From a virus (lineage: Duplodnaviria > Heunggongvirae > Uroviricota > Caudoviricetes): DNA of 20,048 nt. Positions 2,965 to 12,355 of the stretch are shown here, piece by piece. The stretch lies in IMG/VR virus record IMGVR_UViG_2671180847_000011; one strand, given 5' to 3'. Position numbers and translations under genes: made by a program. How positions within the stretch are numbered: the stretch's first letter is position 1; every line of letters starts with the position of its first letter. Under the pieces are notes generated by a model. The model saw only the letters and a list, made by a program, of their open reading frames with translations, had not been told where the DNA came from and made no database searches.

Positions 2965-3261
2965 TCAGTCATTACTGATAGCGCCATAGCGTGAGCGGTA
3001 ATTACGCAGGCGCGGGTCGATATATTCAGGGAAGTGGGTATATGTGGCTTTGCGGAATGGTCGGATTGATGTCTGGTAAATTCGCTCGCGTTCTTCTTTC
3101 TCTGCAAGCCATATACAGTGGCGAAATTCCTTTTCCTCTTTCGTTTCCTGCGGTAGCGACATTATCCGGTCGTAGTTTTTCCTGAATTTATCCAGCACCT
3201 CCGATACGGAATTGCCGGAACAGCGGCGTGGGTCATCCGCACCATACAGAGGCGCTGGCAT
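2965..3261 (-). CDS. Hypothetical early protein, 98 aa (position fits an anti-RecBCD Abc-like gene; unverified)
   Basis: ORF with AAGGA RBS 7 nt upstream of ATG 3261; sits immediately downstream of the erf-ssb recombination genes. Confidence 0.5.
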   Translation of the reverse strand: MPAPLYGADDPRRCSGNSVSEVLDKFRKNYDRIMSLPQETKEEKEFRHCIWLAEKEERERIYQTSIRPFRKATYTHFPEYIDPRLRNYRSRYGAISND

Positions 3262-3284: not shown

Positions 3285-3668
3285 TCAGAATGGGATGGAA
3301 TCGTCGTATACAGGAGTGTTCTGCTGGTTACTACTTTGCTGCTGCGGGCCATTTCCTGAAGCTGCAAATCCAATCTTTGCATTCAGTAATTCAAGAGTGA
3401 TTGATTGACCATTTTGCCCCTGATAAACATCAACCCTGATGTTTTCTCCGGTAATTTCCACAATGCCACCTTCAACAAGAACACTACGGTAGTAATCCGC
3501 TTGCGCTCCCGGCTTGGCAAATACAACGGCGCTGTAGTTTGTCCATTCTTTCTTTTTTGTCTGGCGATCGTAATACTGAACGCCAGCACGGATGTTGAAT
3601 CCGATATTTTCCCCGGCCTGAAACTCTCTTGCGGGCTTGTTTAGTCTTACAGTAATCGAATGTGCCAT
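3285..3668 (-). CDS. ssb: Single-stranded DNA-binding protein-like, 127 aa
   Basis: Gly/Gln-rich tail ending in the SSB acidic tip ...PVYDDSIPF; start ATG at 3668 shares a base with the erf stop (TAATG). The track ORF extends further (to 3758) but overlaps erf. Confidence 0.65.
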   Translation of the reverse strand: MAHSITVRLNKPAREFQAGENIGFNIRAGVQYYDRQTKKKEWTNYSAVVFAKPGAQADYYRSVLVEGGIVEITGENIRVDVYQGQNGQSITLELLNAKIGFAASGNGPQQQSSNQQNTPVYDDSIPF

Positions 3669-4273
3669 TAAGCAGCCGCTCCTTCTAATTCGTCTCGTCT
3701 GATGTTGTAAACGTCCTGCGCTTTGTGCTGCTCCGGTGTGCCTTCGAGCATCTTCCACGCTTTGGCGAACGCCTGTTTAAGCTCTTCTACGGTGTTTTTC
3801 TGCATTGCTGCGTCAGTGAATGCTTTTAGAACCTGTTCAGGTGTAGGTGATGGTTTTGATTGCTTTGCTGCTGCGTTCTGCTGATGTTTATGCTCGTTTG
3901 TATCTGCATCTTTCGCATCATCAATGCCGAACAAACCATTGAGGCAATACTTGCGTGCATAAGAGCTTGTGGCTCCAGTAACTTGTGCAGAATCCATTCC
4001 TTTCTTGCTTTCTTCCTCTCGTGCAAGAGCGGTTGCCGTATGACTGTTTTCGCCATCGGTAATAGTTGCCGTGGCTTTCACGTAATACCGATCACCAATC
4101 AACACAACTTCATCGCTGATTGATAAAAACAGGCCATTCAGTAACGGCTTAACGCCTTCAAGAATGTCTTCGCAGCTTCTGTATTTATATTTACCGAATG
4201 AGTTGTACTGATTCTTTGGCGCGTTCAGATTCTCCTGAATAGCTGCCAGTCTTGCGTAAAATTCTTTGCTCAT
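3668..4273 (-). CDS. erf: Erf-family single-strand annealing protein, about 201 aa
   Basis: MSKEFYARLAAIQENLNAPKNQYNSFGKYKYRSCEDILEGVKPLL...ARKYCLNGLFGIDD closely matches my memory of P22 Erf; start set at the ATG at 4273 rather than the upstream TTG used by the track. Confidence 0.8.
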   Translation of the reverse strand: MSKEFYARLAAIQENLNAPKNQYNSFGKYKYRSCEDILEGVKPLLNGLFLSISDEVVLIGDRYYVKATATITDGENSHTATALAREEESKKGMDSAQVTGATSSYARKYCLNGLFGIDDAKDADTNEHKHQQNAAAKQSKPSPTPEQVLKAFTDAAMQKNTVEELKQAFAKAWKMLEGTPEQHKAQDVYNIRRDELEGAAA

Positions 4274-4283
4274 ATGATTGTTC

Positions 4284-4454
4284 TCAGAACGGACACGGCC
4301 CAAGGAAATAACGCTGATTTAATACTTCAGTCTTTGCCGCATTTAAAAATACGCGAACACCTTCACGATCTCCCTTCTGGCGATACATTAACGCCTGCTG
4401 CGTGTACATGCGTCTCTGTAACTTGCTCTCCTTCACTGTGGTTGCAAGTGACAT
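4284..4454 (-). CDS. Small hypothetical protein, 56 aa
   Basis: My own translation (MSLATTVKESKLQRRMYTQQ...); ATG at 4454 is preceded by AGGAG at 6-nt spacing. Overlaps the next ORF (4363-4533) in another frame, so one of the two is doubtful. Confidence 0.3.
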   Translation of the reverse strand: MSLATTVKESKLQRRMYTQQALMYRQKGDREGVRVFLNAAKTEVLNQRYFLGPCPF

Positions 4455-4533
4455 GAATATCTCCTTCGTTACCGATTAATTCTTTCATCTGACGAATGAA
4501 TTCTTCGTCTGACCAGTTATCCGTAAAACTCAT
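4363..4533 (-). CDS. Small acidic hypothetical protein, 56 aa
   Basis: MSFTDNWSDEEFIRQMKELIGNEGDIH...; ATG at 4533 overlaps the stop of the upstream small gene (ATGA). The C-terminal half overlaps ORF 4284-4454. Confidence 0.3.
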   Translation of the reverse strand: MSFTDNWSDEEFIRQMKELIGNEGDIHVTCNHSEGEQVTETHVHAAGVNVSPEGRS

Positions 4534-4682
4534 TTCCTGCGATACCACGGAAGGTTGATAGCTGATTTCATCGCTTTATTTGCTTCAAGCCACATTTTTG
4601 AATCACCAATAAATCGGGCTATTACTGCTTTGTTCTGTGCAGCACGAAGCATCTGGTGATTGATGGCTATTTCATTGCGCAT
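4530..4682 (-). CDS. Small protein in the kil position, 50 aa
   Basis: My own translation (MRNEIAINHQMLRAAQNKAVIARFIGDSKMWLEANK...); GAGG RBS 7 nt upstream; directly downstream of cIII, where lambda carries kil. Family not verified. Confidence 0.4.
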   Translation of the reverse strand: MRNEIAINHQMLRAAQNKAVIARFIGDSKMWLEANKAMKSAINLPWYRRK

Positions 4683-4798
4683 AATAAGACCTCAAATCTT
4701 TTCCATCCGTCACGTAATTTACGGGTGATTCGTTCAAGTAAAGATTCATTTAATTGGAAGGCACCCATGCGAGCGCCTCCCGCGATTGCGTAAATCAT
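4667..4798 (-). CDS. cIII: CIII-like protein (FtsH inhibitor), 43 aa
   Basis: My own translation MIYAIAGGARMGAFQLNESLLERITRKLRDGWKRFEVLLCAMK contains the conserved CIII core ESLLERITRKLRDGWKR; AAGGAA RBS 6 nt upstream of ATG 4798. Confidence 0.7.
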   Translation of the reverse strand: MIYAIAGGARMGAFQLNESLLERITRKLRDGWKRFEVLLCAMK

Positions 4799-4822: not shown

Positions 4823-5791
4823 TTAGTAGGTTATTTTTGTTGCGAATACTTCGCCTTTTACGATGGCTGTTATGATATTTTTAGCAACATCTTCTGATGC
4901 GCCAACCTTGATAAGGTCAGCAAGTATTTTGTTATTTACTTCTTTCCGGTGAGCTTTATCCTTTGCTCTACGCTCTTCTTCGTCCTTGATTCTTTTTTCT
5001 TCTGCTATTCTGGCTTGCTCTTTTGCTTCAGCCTCGCGCCGGATTCGTTCAGCCTCCTCCTGTGCTTTTCGGCGTTCTGCTTCAATTGCCGCCTGCTTTT
5101 CTCTTTCAGCTCGTTCTGCTGCCTCTTTTGCTTCGCGCTGTGCTCGTTGCTCGGCTTCAATGCGTTCACGCTCTGCACGTTCCGCTGCGGCCTTAGCTTC
5201 TGCTTCTCGCCTTGCTGCTGCTTCAATTTCGGCTTTTGCCTTTGCTTCGGCTTCAGATCTGGCTTTCTCTTCAGCTTCTCTTTTTAAGCGTTCTTCATGC
5301 TCTCGCTTTTCCTGCTCCGCTTTGAGTCTTGCCTCTTCTCTTTGGCGGTCAAATTCGCGATCCATCAAAATCGCTATTTCATGGTCAGACTCAATTTGCT
5401 TTGCGAGAGCTTCAGCTGCTGCCTTAGCTTCTTCTTCGGCTTTAATCCGCGCCTGCTCCTCCTCATAATCAGTAAGAGGCTGGCGCGCCTTGGCTTTCAG
5501 TTCATCAAGGCGATCACGCACTGTCTTGCGGTTGGCATCAATTAGCTTTGGAATTTCCTTAAGTTCAGCAACAAGGTCTTTGCCAAGACCATCGAGATAT
5601 GTTTTCGTCTGCGCAACTTTATACGCCAGAGAAGCGATCTCCTTTCTGCCCTTTGCCGTTGTGATATCAGGCACAAAGGACATAACTTCACGTTCAACCT
5701 TTTGAAGGATTTCTTCAATCTGGTCGGCAGACTGAAATACAGTCATTGCATTTGCTTTTTCAATAACAACTAAATCTGTTACTTCACTCAT
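4823..5791 (-). CDS. Hypothetical protein with a long E/A/K/R-rich repeat region, 322 aa
   Basis: Globular N- and C-terminal parts flank about 150 residues of EAKAKAEIEAAARREAEAK-type repeats; GGAGGA RBS immediately upstream of the ATG. Confidence 0.65.
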   Translation of the reverse strand: MSEVTDLVVIEKANAMTVFQSADQIEEILQKVEREVMSFVPDITTAKGRKEIASLAYKVAQTKTYLDGLGKDLVAELKEIPKLIDANRKTVRDRLDELKAKARQPLTDYEEEQARIKAEEEAKAAAEALAKQIESDHEIAILMDREFDRQREEARLKAEQEKREHEERLKREAEEKARSEAEAKAKAEIEAAARREAEAKAAAERAERERIEAEQRAQREAKEAAERAEREKQAAIEAERRKAQEEAERIRREAEAKEQARIAEEKRIKDEEERRAKDKAHRKEVNNKILADLIKVGASEDVAKNIITAIVKGEVFATKITY

Positions 5792-5803
5792 ATATCCTCC
5801 ATC

Positions 5804-5832
5804 AAAAAAATTGCCCTCACATTAGAGGGCAA
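5804..5832 (-). terminator. Rho-independent terminator inside the leftward operon
   Basis: Stem ttgccctc(5811-5818)/gagggcaa(5825-5832), loop acatta; on the minus strand it is followed by a T7 run (forward A-run 5804-5810). Lies 13 nt upstream of the 322-aa gene start. Confidence 0.55.
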
Positions 5833-5925
5833 AGAAGATTTCCAATAATCAGAACAAGTCGGCTCCTGTTTAGTTACGAGCGACATTGCTCCGTGTATTC
5901 ATTCCAACGAGTGAATACACAGTGC

Positions 5926-6285: not shown

Positions 6286-6909
6286 CTATGCGACCTCGGA
6301 AGGAAGTCCAATCATCTTATTCAAATCTTCTACCCGTAAAGCAGGAAGTGCTGTACTTGCTTTATCTGCTTCTTTTGGTAGCAATTCTTTGCTTTCAGGC
6401 CAAACTTCAATAAGTCGCTTAACTGTTGTGACTGAGTTCAAAGCAGCCCATACATTTGATTCGATATCCTTTTTCTTGGCTTCAAGTTTTTGTTGCAATG
6501 CGCAGATTTCATCAAACCTTTTTGTTATTTCGTGTTCTGCGTCAAACATGCATTTATCTTTTTCTGGGGTGGGGAGCAATATATCTTCACCGTTGCCGTC
6601 TTTTCCGTATGAATGCCAGCCAACCCTTCTTCCAGATACAGTCAGATAAATCGAAGTAGAACGAACATCGCATGAGTAAAATGAACATCCCATCTTCTCA
6701 AGTTCTTCACTTATAGCTGCTAACTTGGATGATAACCGATCCACTTCCTCAGTTTTCTTTTTACCGCCAAACGCAATAACTCTGGCGTCAAGTGCAAGCT
6801 GGTTCTTTAACTTTGTTACTTCTTCAAGTTCAGTGAAAACCCCAGACTTAATTAAAGCGTTACGAGCGATTTCCTCTTTCATTCTCGTAGTTAAGCGGAT
6901 TGATGACAT
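6286..6909 (-). CDS. Hypothetical protein, about 207 aa
   Basis: Start set at the internal ATG at 6909 (MSSIRLTTRMKEE...), which has a GAGAGGAA RBS; the track ORF begins earlier at 6969. No recognisable family. Confidence 0.55.
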   Translation of the reverse strand: MSSIRLTTRMKEEIARNALIKSGVFTELEEVTKLKNQLALDARVIAFGGKKKTEEVDRLSSKLAAISEELEKMGCSFYSCDVRSTSIYLTVSGRRVGWHSYGKDGNGEDILLPTPEKDKCMFDAEHEITKRFDEICALQQKLEAKKKDIESNVWAALNSVTTVKRLIEVWPESKELLPKEADKASTALPALRVEDLNKMIGLPSEVA

Positions 6910-7022
6910 ATTAATTCCTCTCAAATAAGTGGTTTGCTGCCTAATTTCATTTTCTGGCGACCAACACAAGTCACCCCCATTTCACTGCGTGGCTTGCGGT
7001 AGTAAATTAGGTTTGTTCAGAC

Positions 7023-7386: not shown

Positions 7387-7692
7387 TCAATAAGCACCGT
7401 ACGGTAGTTTACTGTACAATTTTATTTTTTGGACTGCATGTATTTTGTTTCCTAATGGGTTTGAATCTTTGTAATAAATACTTCTATTTTTTCGAACGAC
7501 TTCTTCTTTCTTCTTGCAGCAAAGGCTTCCTAGCGATGCCGCTTTGTCTGCTCTGACGCAACCAGAGAGCTTTAGCGCAATTTTTCTCGCCAGTGCTTCA
7601 TTACTGCGTCGCTCGGCAATAAGTTCTGCTCTGCGAGCTTTGTAGCGGCTTTTTGCCGTACCTTTGGATTCTTTCCAGACAATGGTTACCAT
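7387..7692 (-). CDS. N: N-type transcription antiterminator with phage-21-type arginine-rich motif
   Basis: Contains GTAKSRYKARRAELIAERR, matching the phage 21 N boxB-binding motif as I remember it; first gene after pL/nutL; start taken at MVTIVWKESK (ATG 7692). Confidence 0.75.
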   Translation of the reverse strand: MVTIVWKESKGTAKSRYKARRAELIAERRSNEALARKIALKLSGCVRADKAASLGSLCCKKKEEVVRKNRSIYYKDSNPLGNKIHAVQKIKLYSKLPYGAY

Positions 7693-7802
7693 GATGGTCT
7701 CCTTTAAGTGGCTTTGGCGCATGACGCGTCGAGGTGCTTATCTTCTCGATCGCTGTCTTGCAGCTGCAATTCGCGCCATCCCCAAAACCACTCAAGTTCT
7801 GG

Positions 7803-7842
7803 TCTCAACGGTTAGGTTGAGAGTCCGTCGATGTTAAAGAGC
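7803..7842 (-). promoter_or_regulatory. nutL (boxA plus boxB)
   Basis: Minus strand reads GCTCTTTAACA (boxA, 7832-7842), then after 9 nt the hairpin tctcaac-ctaacc-gttgaga (boxB, 7803-7822). The same boxA sequence recurs at nutR. Confidence 0.7.
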
Positions 7843-10370: not shown

Positions 10371-10478
10371 ATGAAATCAAAAATCAAATCGCTACTGGTC
10401 GCTGGTTATAACCACGGCTGGTTAAGTATTTCGTTTGTCGATTTCTGGTTTAAAAATCTCAATCTGAGGGAATCATGA
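10371..10478 (+). CDS. Small ORF between O and the helicase gene, 35 aa
   Basis: My own translation (MKSKIKSLLVAGYNHGWLSISFVDFWFKNLNLRES); AGGTGA upstream; stop overlaps the helicase ATG (ATGA). May instead be a non-coding linker. Confidence 0.3.
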   Translation: MKSKIKSLLVAGYNHGWLSISFVDFWFKNLNLRES

Positions 10479-12355
10479 CGCCAAGTGAACTTAGCGACCT
10501 GCTTTGGGCGCAGGTTGACAGGGTGGCTCCGCACCTGTTGCCAAACGGCAAGAAAGAGGGGCATGAGTGGGTTGCCGGTAACGTCAATGGTGACAAGGGA
10601 AACAGCCTTAAGGTCAACCTTAGCGGCAAGAAAAAATGGGCTGATTTCGCTGAGGGAGACGGCGGTGACATGCTTGATTTGTGGATGGCATGTCGTGGAA
10701 TTAACCTGCATCAGGCTATGCAGGAAGCGAAAGCATTTCTCGGTATCAAGGATGACGATCACCATTTCGATGCCAAACGTGAGAAAAAATTCTCCAGACC
10801 TGATCGCAAGAAAATCGCCCGCTACGTTACCAGAACAGAATCCCATCTTGAGTACCTGCAATCGCGTGGCATATCGCCAGAAGTCGTAAAGCGCTACGAG
10901 GTTGTCAGCGGCAAGGTGTGGAATGGAGAACGAGAACTTGATGCACTGGTGCTTCCGTACAAACGCGATGGTGAGTTGTTGCAGGTCAAGCGAATCAGCA
11001 CTGAGCGCCCGGACGGGAAGAAAGTCATTATGGCAGAAGGTGATTGCGAACCTTGTCTGTTCGGATGGCAGGCTCTGGACGCTGGCGTAAGGGCGGTTGT
11101 ACTTTGCGAAGGCGAAATTGATTGTATGAGCTATGCGCAATACGGCATCTCGGCGTTATCCGTGCCGTTTGGTGGCGGGAAAGGCGCTAAGCAACAGTGG
11201 ATTGAGTTTGAGTATCACAACCTCGACAGGTTTGAGGAAATATTCATCTCGATGGACGTTGATGATGTTGGTCGTGAAGCCGCAAGGGAAATCGCAAGCC
11301 GACTCGGTGAACATCGTTGCCGTCTTGTTACTCTGCCGTACAAAGACATCAACGAATGCCTGATGAACGGTGTTACCGAGGATGAAATCTGGCAGTACAT
11401 CGGCACGGCATCCTACTTCGATCCTGAAGAACTCTACAGCGCGCGAGAGTTTTACCAGGACACTATCAACGCTTTCTACGGCAAGCAGCAGTATCTGTTT
11501 AATCCACCGTGGGAATCTCTGGCAGATAAATTCCAGTTCCGTGAGGCCGAGTTGACGCTGGTCAATGGTGTGAACGGTCACGGAAAAACGGAGGTTGTCG
11601 GGCATATGGCACTTGAGGCAATGCGTCAGGGTGTGAAGACATGCATCGCGTCACTTGAGCTGAAGCCTGGTATTCTCCTTAAGCGCCTTACCCGTCAGGC
11701 GACGTGCTGCAAGATGCCGCCAGTGCTGGAAATTGACTCTGCATTTAAATTTTATGACGAAAGACTTTGGGTGTTTGGCCTGACCGGAACGGCGAAAGCC
11801 GATAGGCTGATCGAAATATTCGACTACGCTCGCCGCCGATACGGGATCCAGTTATTCATCATCGACAGCCTGATGAAATGTGGCATAGGCGACGATGACT
11901 ATAACGGGCAGAAGGCGTTTGTTGACTCGATTTGCGACTTCAAAAACAAAACAAACTCCCACGTCATTCTCGTTACTCACTCCAGAAAAGGAGACAGCGA
12001 AGAAAAACCAACCGGGAAAATGGACGTAAAAGGCTCTGGAGCGATAACAGACCTGACAGACAACCTTTTCATCATCTGGCGTAACAAGGCTCGCGAGAGA
12101 GCGTTACAGAGGGTTCAGAGTGGTGAAAAGATGTCAGAGAAGGACGAACAGCTACTGGCATCTCCGGCATCTGTTTTGATGCTTGAAAAACAACGTAACG
12201 GCGAAGGTTGGGAAGGTGGTGTCCCGTTGTTCCTTGACGAGCAATCGCACCAGTTCCTGCAACTTGAATCAGGATCGCCATATAGCTACATCGCCAATAT
12301 GCCGAAATCGGAATATGACGAGGCGTGGCGACAGGAAAACGTGACGGAGTATTAA
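10475..12355 (+). CDS. Bifunctional primase-helicase (Toprim domain plus DnaB-like ATPase), 626 aa
   Basis: Toprim-like acidic motifs (VLCEGEIDCMSYAQ; DVDDVGREAA) in the N-terminal half; Walker A GVNGHGKT and Walker B LFIIDSLMK in the C-terminal half. Occupies the lambda P position. Confidence 0.8.
   Translation: MTPSELSDLLWAQVDRVAPHLLPNGKKEGHEWVAGNVNGDKGNSLKVNLSGKKKWADFAEGDGGDMLDLWMACRGINLHQAMQEAKAFLGIKDDDHHFDAKREKKFSRPDRKKIARYVTRTESHLEYLQSRGISPEVVKRYEVVSGKVWNGERELDALVLPYKRDGELLQVKRISTERPDGKKVIMAEGDCEPCLFGWQALDAGVRAVVLCEGEIDCMSYAQYGISALSVPFGGGKGAKQQWIEFEYHNLDRFEEIFISMDVDDVGREAAREIASRLGEHRCRLVTLPYKDINECLMNGVTEDEIWQYIGTASYFDPEELYSAREFYQDTINAFYGKQQYLFNPPWESLADKFQFREAELTLVNGVNGHGKTEVVGHMALEAMRQGVKTCIASLELKPGILLKRLTRQATCCKMPPVLEIDSAFKFYDERLWVFGLTGTAKADRLIEIFDYARRRYGIQLFIIDSLMKCGIGDDDYNGQKAFVDSICDFKNKTNSHVILVTHSRKGDSEEKPTGKMDVKGSGAITDLTDNLFIIWRNKARERALQRVQSGEKMSEKDEQLLASPASVLMLEKQRNGEGWEGGVPLFLDEQSHQFLQLESGSPYSYIANMPKSEYDEAWRQENVTEY

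Follow-up and report, generated by a model that had tools for sequence, protein, structure and literature searches.

Recombineering and phage genome mosaicism both rest on phage recombination (Rec) modules, such as those built on Red, Erf, RecT or Sak4, whose gene content counts as well catalogued. For lambdoid Rec modules a 2025 survey lists single-stranded DNA-binding proteins (SSBs), nucleases, annealing proteins, RecBCD inhibitors, Abc1, Arf and a few others, and it finds, across 325 lambdoid genomes, very few genes inside canonical modules without a predictable function (PMC12315714). Arf and Abc1 of P22 are small accessory proteins that aid Erf recombination by mechanisms that are unknown (PMC12315714). 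In Firmicutes phages, genes for Mu-Gam-like, DUF2483, DUF1351 or Gp157 proteins stand upstream of erf, sak4 or recT, and these have been suggested to be functional analogues (PMC8093625). Here we analyse a gene for a 322-aa protein in a 20,048-nucleotide stretch of viral DNA (Caudoviricetes; IMGVR_UViG_2671180847_000011), which we call the window throughout, and the family to which this gene belongs.

Judged from its sequence the gene is not new, as identical public records exist and it falls into PHROG 1376. The window is a lambdoid prophage with the gene in its early-left operon (coding sequence 4823..5791 on the minus strand, ATG at 5791-5789, stop TAA at 4825-4823). The protein is 100% identical to the product of mEp043 gene 44 (mEp043_044), has a homologue in Sf6 gene 33, and matches the profile phrog_1376 over its full length (E 1.5e-110, residues 1-322 against profile positions 1-362 of 362); a prophage of E. 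coli B7A carries a gene 100% identical to the coding sequence. Membership of PHROG 1376 is therefore direct, with 98-100% DNA identity to the Sf6 and mEp043 genes, and the entries carry no function. No meaningful Pfam match was found for the whole protein, for its end domains, or for a set of 130 sequences made up of the window protein and 129 family members, and scans of the whole protein, the end domains and these 129 members against NCBIfam and PADLOC returned nothing meaningful. Searches of the PDB by sequence and by profile gave compositional matches only, for example to ensconsin and zuotin. A Pfam Phage_Arf hit (E 0.6) on the C-terminal domain of a Pseudomonas homologue was rejected after the P22 Arf sequence had been read. 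What is undescribed, as far as could be searched, is the architecture of two end domains joined by an ER/K-type helix at the head of recombination modules throughout the Proteobacteria.

In P22 the corresponding slot, upstream of c3 and preceded by a terminator, is taken by gene 17, and P22 arf and abc1 belong to the same early-left operon as genes of the 322-aa type; none of the three shows sequence similarity to the 322-aa gene. DUF1351 (PF07083), Sipho_Gp157 and DUF2483 likewise take the slot directly upstream of the annealing gene, whatever the type of that gene. The DUF1351 Pfam model, which scores 67 bits on a genuine DUF1351 protein from Enterococcus phage LG62, failed to match the protein, whole or by domain, with E allowed up to 10, and it matched none of the 130 sequences. 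Comparison by hhalign gave a weak match (probability 8.7%, E 0.0039, 72 columns, N-terminus to N-terminus) to a DUF1351 alignment that represents one Enterococcus phage clade. That clade has an aromatic-rich middle domain rather than an ER/K helix and a different C-terminus; with so weak an N-terminal match and so different a remainder, homology to DUF1351 is not established. ORF15 of staphylococcal phage 80alpha is a DUF2483 protein and not a DUF1351 one. Nor does the 322-aa protein resemble, in sequence or in fold, the known inhibitors of RecBCD or the known end-binding proteins (lambda Gam, GamL, Mu Gam, Abc2).

Linkage of the family to recombination modules

A profile search of 1.84 billion representative proteins recovered 3,390 clusters (50% identity) at E<1e-30. 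Members come from prophages of gamma-, beta- and alphaproteobacteria and from a few other metagenome-assembled genomes (MAGs), with the same architecture throughout, and the best 150 are mostly 290-380 aa long; the gene is carried by 530 of 5,426 complete E. coli genomes (~10%). The N-terminal domain was also found by tblastn in Pseudomonas, Vibrio and Klebsiella phages. A search with this domain alone returned mostly truncated fragments, and a search for related loci in the viral collection mostly near-identical E. coli loci. One gene 100% identical to the window's (locus L093, JAFADF010000066.1) sits on a 3.9-kb contig of an 'Actinomycetes bacterium' MAG, a contig that is probably mis-binned or a contaminant.

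The neighbours were counted systematically in 78 loci from different species, with same-strand open reading frames (ORFs) of at least 130 aa. The first downstream ORF, available for 75 loci, encodes an annealing protein in 40 of them (ERF 28, RecT 6, AAA_24/Sak4 3, Rad52 3), and others encode DUF3799 (9), YqaJ (3), PDDEXK_1 (1), SSB (2) or RNase_T (2), so that about 15 further loci have a recombination nuclease or an SSB at this position. At the second downstream position (73 loci) YqaJ leads with 23, followed by SSB (7), RecT (4), DUF3799 (3) and AAA_24 (3). Upstream, the nearest ORF of 60 loci is a recombination gene in only about 10, the others including CI-type repressors. Altogether a recognised recombination gene lies within 3 kb in 64 of the 78 loci, on the downstream side in 56 of those 64, and in many loci from distant lineages the next gene begins 0-12 nt past the stop codon of the family gene.

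Individual loci agree with these counts. The order is family gene-gam-bet-exo in Klebsiella phage Mulock, family gene-ERF-YqaJ in Pseudomonas phage JBD44 and in P0248, and family gene-HNH-ERF-YqaJ in P0272. Other orders are Sak4-SSB-orf-family gene with RdgC further downstream in P0199; DUF3799, a 312-aa ORF, the family gene, an ORF and SSB in P0240; and, in Vibrio phage Seahorse, a Sak4-like ATPase (a weak AAA_24 match below the Pfam cutoff), an ORF and then the family gene. The same subtype of the C-terminal domain occurs beside ERF-YqaJ, DUF3799-Sak4 and DUF3799-RecT modules, and a search for co-variation between this subtype and the kind of annealing protein gave none. This implies that the family is tied to the module and not to any one type of annealing protein. 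Thus the family is consistently linked to phage recombination modules, a link that the original prediction, made from the window alone, had missed.

On the upstream side, 16 of the same-strand neighbours are CI-type repressors (HTH_3 plus Peptidase_S24; loci L097, L098, L100, L109-L112, L115, L121, L124, L125, L131, L137, L143, L157 and L162), so that in many non-enteric prophages only a few small ORFs separate the gene from the repressor, which lies upstream of it in the same orientation.

The end domains and the charged helix

The protein was originally described as a core of about 150 residues rich in Glu, Ala, Lys and Arg, predicted to form a single long charged helix or coiled coil between small globular ends, and most of this description holds. 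Residues 111-280 (170 aa) are 85% E/A/K/R/Q, and the small ends are real domains, with residues 1-110 and residues 281-322 each conserved in thousands of homologues. A long helix is likewise supported, by the AlphaFold2 (AF2) model and by the pattern of charges; a classical coiled coil is not, since heptad periodicity is missing.

The N-terminal domain (N-domain; residues 1-110; 5462..5791, minus strand) is modelled as two short helices that pack on the start of the long helix, and it reaches a predicted local distance difference test score (pLDDT) of 88 when modelled alone. Its family motif is VPD.(S/T)T.KGR..IAS.A.KV...K..LD..GK.L....K.....D..R...R..LD.....R.PL..(W/Y)E.E, with D42, T45, G48, R49, S54, K63, D67, G70, K71, D85, R88, R92, R103 and P105 near-invariant; in a fuller form, which all members share along with the charged helical linker and the C-terminal domain, it reads VPD.ST.KGRKEIAS.A.KV..SKT.LD..GK.LV..K..PK.(I/V)D..RK..R..LD.L....R.PL..WE.E. 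A helical segment follows at residues 111-160 (5312..5461, minus strand; pLDDT 84-91) with the semi-conserved motif QIESDHEIAILMDREFDR, which Klebsiella and Vibrio homologues also have. The C-terminal mini-domain (C-domain; residues 281-322; 4826..4951, minus strand) has the motif H(R/K)..(I/V)N......L...G.....AK..(I/V).AI..G.(I/V)....I.Y-COOH. Both H281 and Y322 are at least 90% conserved, and of the 134 representatives with at least 285 aa, 121 end in Tyr and 8 in Phe. The protein lacks a membrane segment: its Kyte-Doolittle hydropathy, averaged over 19 residues, peaks at 1.03 (residue 293), below the threshold of ~1.6, and the N-terminus is charged.

Between these domains the purest part of the core, residues 161-280 (4952..5311, minus strand), consists of 120 aa that are 91% E/A/K/R/Q (E 30%, A 27%, R 18%, K 12%), with no Pro or Gly and only 5.8% ILVMFWY. 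Its charges are strongly ordered: opposite-charge i/i+4 pairs number 48, against 22.2±3.6 in shuffles of the same residues, and same-charge pairs number 2, against 21.8±3.6. The ILVMFWY residues show no 3.5-residue periodicity, their power at 3.5 being not above that of shuffles in either 161-280 or 111-280. Helix 46-110 is clearly amphipathic, with a periodicity of 3.5-3.67 residues (p of 0.005 or less). The AF2 model (mean pLDDT 80) has helices at 12-20, 22-38, 46-175, 183-295 and 300-311, with pLDDT 82-90 over residues 200-300. ER/K single alpha-helix (SAH) domains are found as lever-arm extensions of myosin VI and X, and in caldesmon and drebrin (for the drebrin SAH, PMC12203971). The core shares with them a high content of E, K and R, few hydrophobic residues, i/i+4 enrichment, the lack of a heptad and a helix predicted between two domains; it differs from classical E4K4-type helices in being richer in Ala (27%) and Arg and in belonging to a phage early protein. 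The excess of opposite-charge pairs, the near-absence of same-charge pairs and the missing heptad argue for an ER/K single alpha-helix and not a canonical coiled coil, a signature from which the core would presumably be monomeric. If fully helical, the 170-aa linker between the N- and C-domains would span ~25 nm, and its purest 120 aa ~18 nm.

The same pattern runs through the family. Among 115 sequences (114 representatives and the window protein) the linker has a median length of 174 aa (interquartile range 160-192, full range 141-218), is 50% charged and 23% Ala, and contains a median of one Pro or Gly. The i/i+4 z-score has a median of 5.0 for opposite charges (91% above 3) and of -4.1 for like charges; the charge pattern of the linker is conserved while its sequence is not. 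Two members are reciprocal chimeras: P0115 combines an N-domain of the window type with a C-domain of the Klebsiella Mulock type and P0117 is the reverse, with the crossover in the low-complexity core. This indicates that the end domains are separable modules that reassort independently, with the core as the crossover zone.

The DNA of the core is repetitive, though less than had been claimed. The only signals in Tandem Repeats Finder are a weak one of period 6 (GCTTCT; 63% matches, score 32) and a 15-mer present in two copies, and the direct-repeat families in the gene are imperfect, 27-37 nt long and 67-89% identical. The repetitiveness is that of a biased codon composition (GAA-GCx on the other strand) and not of a tandem array. 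The suggestion that repeat number could change by slippage is only loosely right: the length of homologues does vary in the core, from 245 to 333 aa, but no repeat unit that changes in copy number is found. Lengths of 245, 275, 287, 290, 296, 300, 302, 304, 306, 309, 321 and 333 aa occur among E. coli proteins whose remaining sequence is 98-100% identical. Compared with the 322-aa form, each shorter variant has a single in-frame deletion of 1 to 77 aa, at differing positions within residues 119-240, and one variant has an 11-aa tandem duplication, RERIEAEQRAQ. Eight of the 11 deletions and the duplication lie wholly inside 161-280, and three deletions begin in 111-160. Microhomology at the junctions, measured on the window DNA, is 0-11 nt, against a mean of 1.5 and a 95th percentile of 5 nt for random in-frame deletions, a figure that the aligner's placement of gaps may inflate. 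Junctions of this kind would fit slippage between short imperfect repeats, or illegitimate recombination between them. Such variants are rare and 322 aa is by far the commonest length, 496 of 530 E. coli carrier genomes having a near-full-length gene, and homologues from Enterobacter, Cronobacter, Citrobacter and Salmonella (77-79% identity) are exactly 322 aa.

Candidate roles and rival explanations

We propose that the family provides an accessory factor or tether of the phage recombination module, whichever type of annealing protein that module contains; on the evidence of synteny and domain architecture this may well be its role, and we put it forward tentatively. The protein would be a soluble, all-helical phage early protein with an N-domain of ~110 aa, a rigid ER/K helix and a 42-aa C-domain ending in a near-invariant Tyr. 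In proteobacterial temperate phages it would be encoded by the promoter-proximal gene of the Rec module, followed by the annealing protein and then by an exonuclease and/or an SSB, and it would assist recombination or recombination-dependent replication, with the helix as a spacer that holds two binding activities at a fixed distance. Since the same family, and the same C-domain subtype, accompanies ERF, RecT, Sak4 and Redbeta, it more probably partners with DNA, or with a conserved component of the host, than with the annealing protein. We speculate further, as an idea more doubtful than probable, that the protein is a near-universal component of Rec modules in which an ER/K spacer of ~20-25 nm separates the conserved N-domain from a lineage-specific C-domain. 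One end would bind DNA or another universal target and the other a host component (replisome, SSB or nuclease), so as to position or shield the annealing or exonuclease activity at forks or DNA ends; this would make it the first ER/K 'ruler' in phage DNA metabolism. A natural phage and bacterial ER/K helix with existing length variants (245 to 333 aa) is suited to this idea. With more than 3,000 clusters, presence in about a tenth of complete E. coli genomes, no Pfam entry and a misleading TolA name, the family is a candidate for a missing accessory function; if the proposal is true, an overlooked factor stands at the head of Rec modules, whichever annealing protein follows.

Several points weigh against this proposal. 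Synteny is not function, and the early-left operon also holds genes for anti-defence and host takeover. About 14 of the 78 loci have no recognised recombination gene within 3 kb, one homologue adjoins tail genes, the E. coli phages have cIII and kil between the 322-aa gene and erf, and the neighbouring ORFs were called by a simple longest-ORF rule. The family is absent from the main text of the 2025 survey of lambdoid Rec modules (PMC12315714), and no study of the 322-aa protein or of any member was found in the literature that could be searched. The persistence of natural variants of 245 to 333 aa implies that the length of the helix is not strictly fixed. Two features bear on the helix itself. 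Ala and the hydrophobic residues together form a stripe with a period of 3.67 residues (p about 0.002 in 161-280; reached by 0 of 2,000 shuffles in 111-280), which could support packing of helix on helix over a lone helix, and the AF2 model has a low-confidence break at 176-182.

The main rival is that the protein acts against the host or its defences, for example as an inhibitor or decoy of a host nuclease or of an SMC-type defence complex, and merely shares the operon, in analogy to Gam, Abc2 and Ral. The slot itself speaks for this, as in Firmicutes phages the position upstream of erf or sak4 holds Mu-Gam-like, DUF2483, DUF1351 or Gp157 genes (PMC8093625), and as gene 17, which fills the position upstream of c3 in P22, is annotated as allowing growth on a Fels-2 lysogen. 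A host target would also fit the C-domain subtypes, which track the host lineage and not the type of annealing protein, and the core is net negative (median -10). The whole protein is, however, near neutral, which counts against a DNA mimic, and it matches neither PADLOC nor any known anti-defence family. It stands together with Abc2 in the window and, in phage Mulock, with a GamL-like gene whose annotation is host-nuclease inhibitor, and thus does not simply take the place of a RecBCD inhibitor; coupling to the annealing gene at 0-12 nt, as found in many distant lineages, is rather what a functional partner would typically show. On balance we consider an anti-defence or host-directed role rather unlikely.

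A different objection concerns the form of the helix, which might not be single: the protein could fold back as an antiparallel hairpin that joins its N- and C-domains, or dimerise as an alanine-stripe coiled coil of the SMC/Rad50 or Gam type. The Ala-based stripe just described, the amphipathic helix 46-110 and the position of the AF2 break near the middle of the protein would all suit such pairing. Against this, the break falls where the partial sequences in the input alignment end, the core offers no Gly or Pro for a turn, and hydrophobic residues are both few and without a 3.5-residue signal. The salt-bridge excess and the scarcity of same-charge pairs are a monomeric ER/K signature, and a hairpin would lose its register through deletions such as those of 13 to 77 aa that occur naturally at arbitrary positions. 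A paired helix therefore seems unlikely. Much less credible again is the cell-envelope role given in current annotation. That a TolA label would be assigned by composition had been foreseen, and NCBI indeed names these genes 'cell envelope biogenesis protein TolA', 'coiled-coil domain-containing protein' or hypothetical. TolA domain II is likewise a long Ala/Glu/Lys-rich helical spacer between terminal domains, and beyond this likeness of composition the label is refuted on every test: the model tolA_full (TIGR02794) reaches 9 bits (E 0.72) where its cutoff is 59.45; a membrane anchor (domain I) is missing; the C-domain is only 42 aa, without a Pfam match or a detectable TolA domain III; and the gene belongs to a phage pL operon, in the interval from N to cIII, and not to the tol-pal operon. 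We regard a TolA-like function as extremely improbable, and the label on these prophage genes is to be dropped.

The early-left operon and its terminator

Across 95% of a 1.25-kb stretch around the gene the window matches phage mEp043 c-1 at 100% identity, and the same stretch is ~98% identical in Sf6 (gene 33), CUS-3, HK544, mEp213, mEp234 and Stx1a phages. In mEp043 the order is N, small ORFs, the 322-aa gene, cIII, kil, a small ORF, erf, an HK97 gp40-like gene and abc2; from the 322-aa gene onwards the window reads 322-aa gene-cIII-kil-orf56-erf-orf157-abc2. Directly downstream in the same operon, on the minus strand, are cIII (4667..4798, mapped from the mEp043 annotation), kil (4530..4682; Pfam Lambda_Kil, E 1.7e-20) and erf (3668..4303; Pfam ERF, E 1.7e-44), which encodes the single-strand annealing protein of the recombination module, and further down from erf lies abc2 (2965-3261; Pfam Anti-RecBCD_p2, E 4e-62). 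Upstream is the gene for the N antiterminator (7387..7722, minus strand), with an arginine-rich motif of the phage-21 type, GTAKSRYKARRAELIAERR.

An intrinsic terminator precedes the gene (5804..5832, minus strand), recognised as a hairpin with a U-run: the hairpin UUGCCCUC-UAAUGU-GAGGGCAA at 5832-5811 has an 8-bp stem (5 G-C pairs) and a 6-nt loop, and U7 comes directly after it, at 5810-5804. Its folding energy, with the flanking sequence included (5792-5850), is -19.5 kcal/mol (z = -3.4), and the Sf6 and mEp234 records annotate the same hairpin as a terminator. The terminator first predicted is thus real, while its distance from the ribosome-binding site (RBS) is shorter than the 13 nt given, the end of the stem standing 10 nt from GGAGG. 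This Shine-Dalgarno sequence (5796..5800, minus strand) lies 4 nt before the ATG, and GGAGGATAT-ATG is conserved in E. coli-type loci of the gene. In the minimum-free-energy fold of 5792-5850 (minus strand) the terminator stem is extended by an AUCUUCU that pairs with the Shine-Dalgarno GGAGGAU; if the model is right, read-through transcripts could have the RBS partly hidden by the extended stem.

Of 63 close relatives about 49 keep the terminator, including ones with unrelated DNA beyond it, so that it is part of the mosaic unit that carries the 322-aa gene. It is not obligatory, as in about 11 of the 63 a gene like P22 gene 17 abuts the ORF in its place. The product of the abutting gene ends ...RKYIESLKEETSAA, like that of P22 gene 17 (L013, L014, L016, L049, L055, L065, L067 and others), which shows an alternative mosaic junction at the same spot. 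Two further terminator-like hairpins lie upstream, at 7047-7030 and 6297-6278. Beyond them are nutL, with an rrn-like boxA GCTCTTTAACA at 7832-7842 and a boxB hairpin CTCAAC-CTAACC-GTTGAG at 7803-7823 (minus strand), and a pL-like promoter; no promoter-like site was found on the coding strand between these pL/N elements and the 322-aa gene. Since intrinsic terminators precede the gene, established lambda biology leads to the sound inference, also drawn originally, that its expression should depend on N, as delayed-early expression from pL.

The window holds some further features. An inverted repeat at 5893-5920 with a 12-bp stem (GTGTATTCA...TGAATACAC) follows the stop of a 62-aa ORF by a few nucleotides and has no U-run; it may be a processing site or a lambdoid 'boundary sequence' (bsq4 in the Sf6 annotation). 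Between N and the 322-aa gene, a 227-aa ORF (6289-6969, minus strand) matches Pfam Nmad5 (nucleotide modification associated domain 5) with E 3.8e-71, and mEp043 has different small ORFs at that place. On the plus strand, a 626-aa ORF (10475-12355) stands after the replication gene O, and its mEp043 equivalent is annotated as similar to ES18 gp61. Across the 322-aa gene itself run long antisense ORFs of 82-160 aa (4949-5287, 4986-5468 and 5297-5545, all plus strand), which arise as a side effect of its low-complexity GAA/GCx coding sequence; in homologues of high GC content, ORFs of this kind can exceed the real gene in length and mislead simple gene callers.

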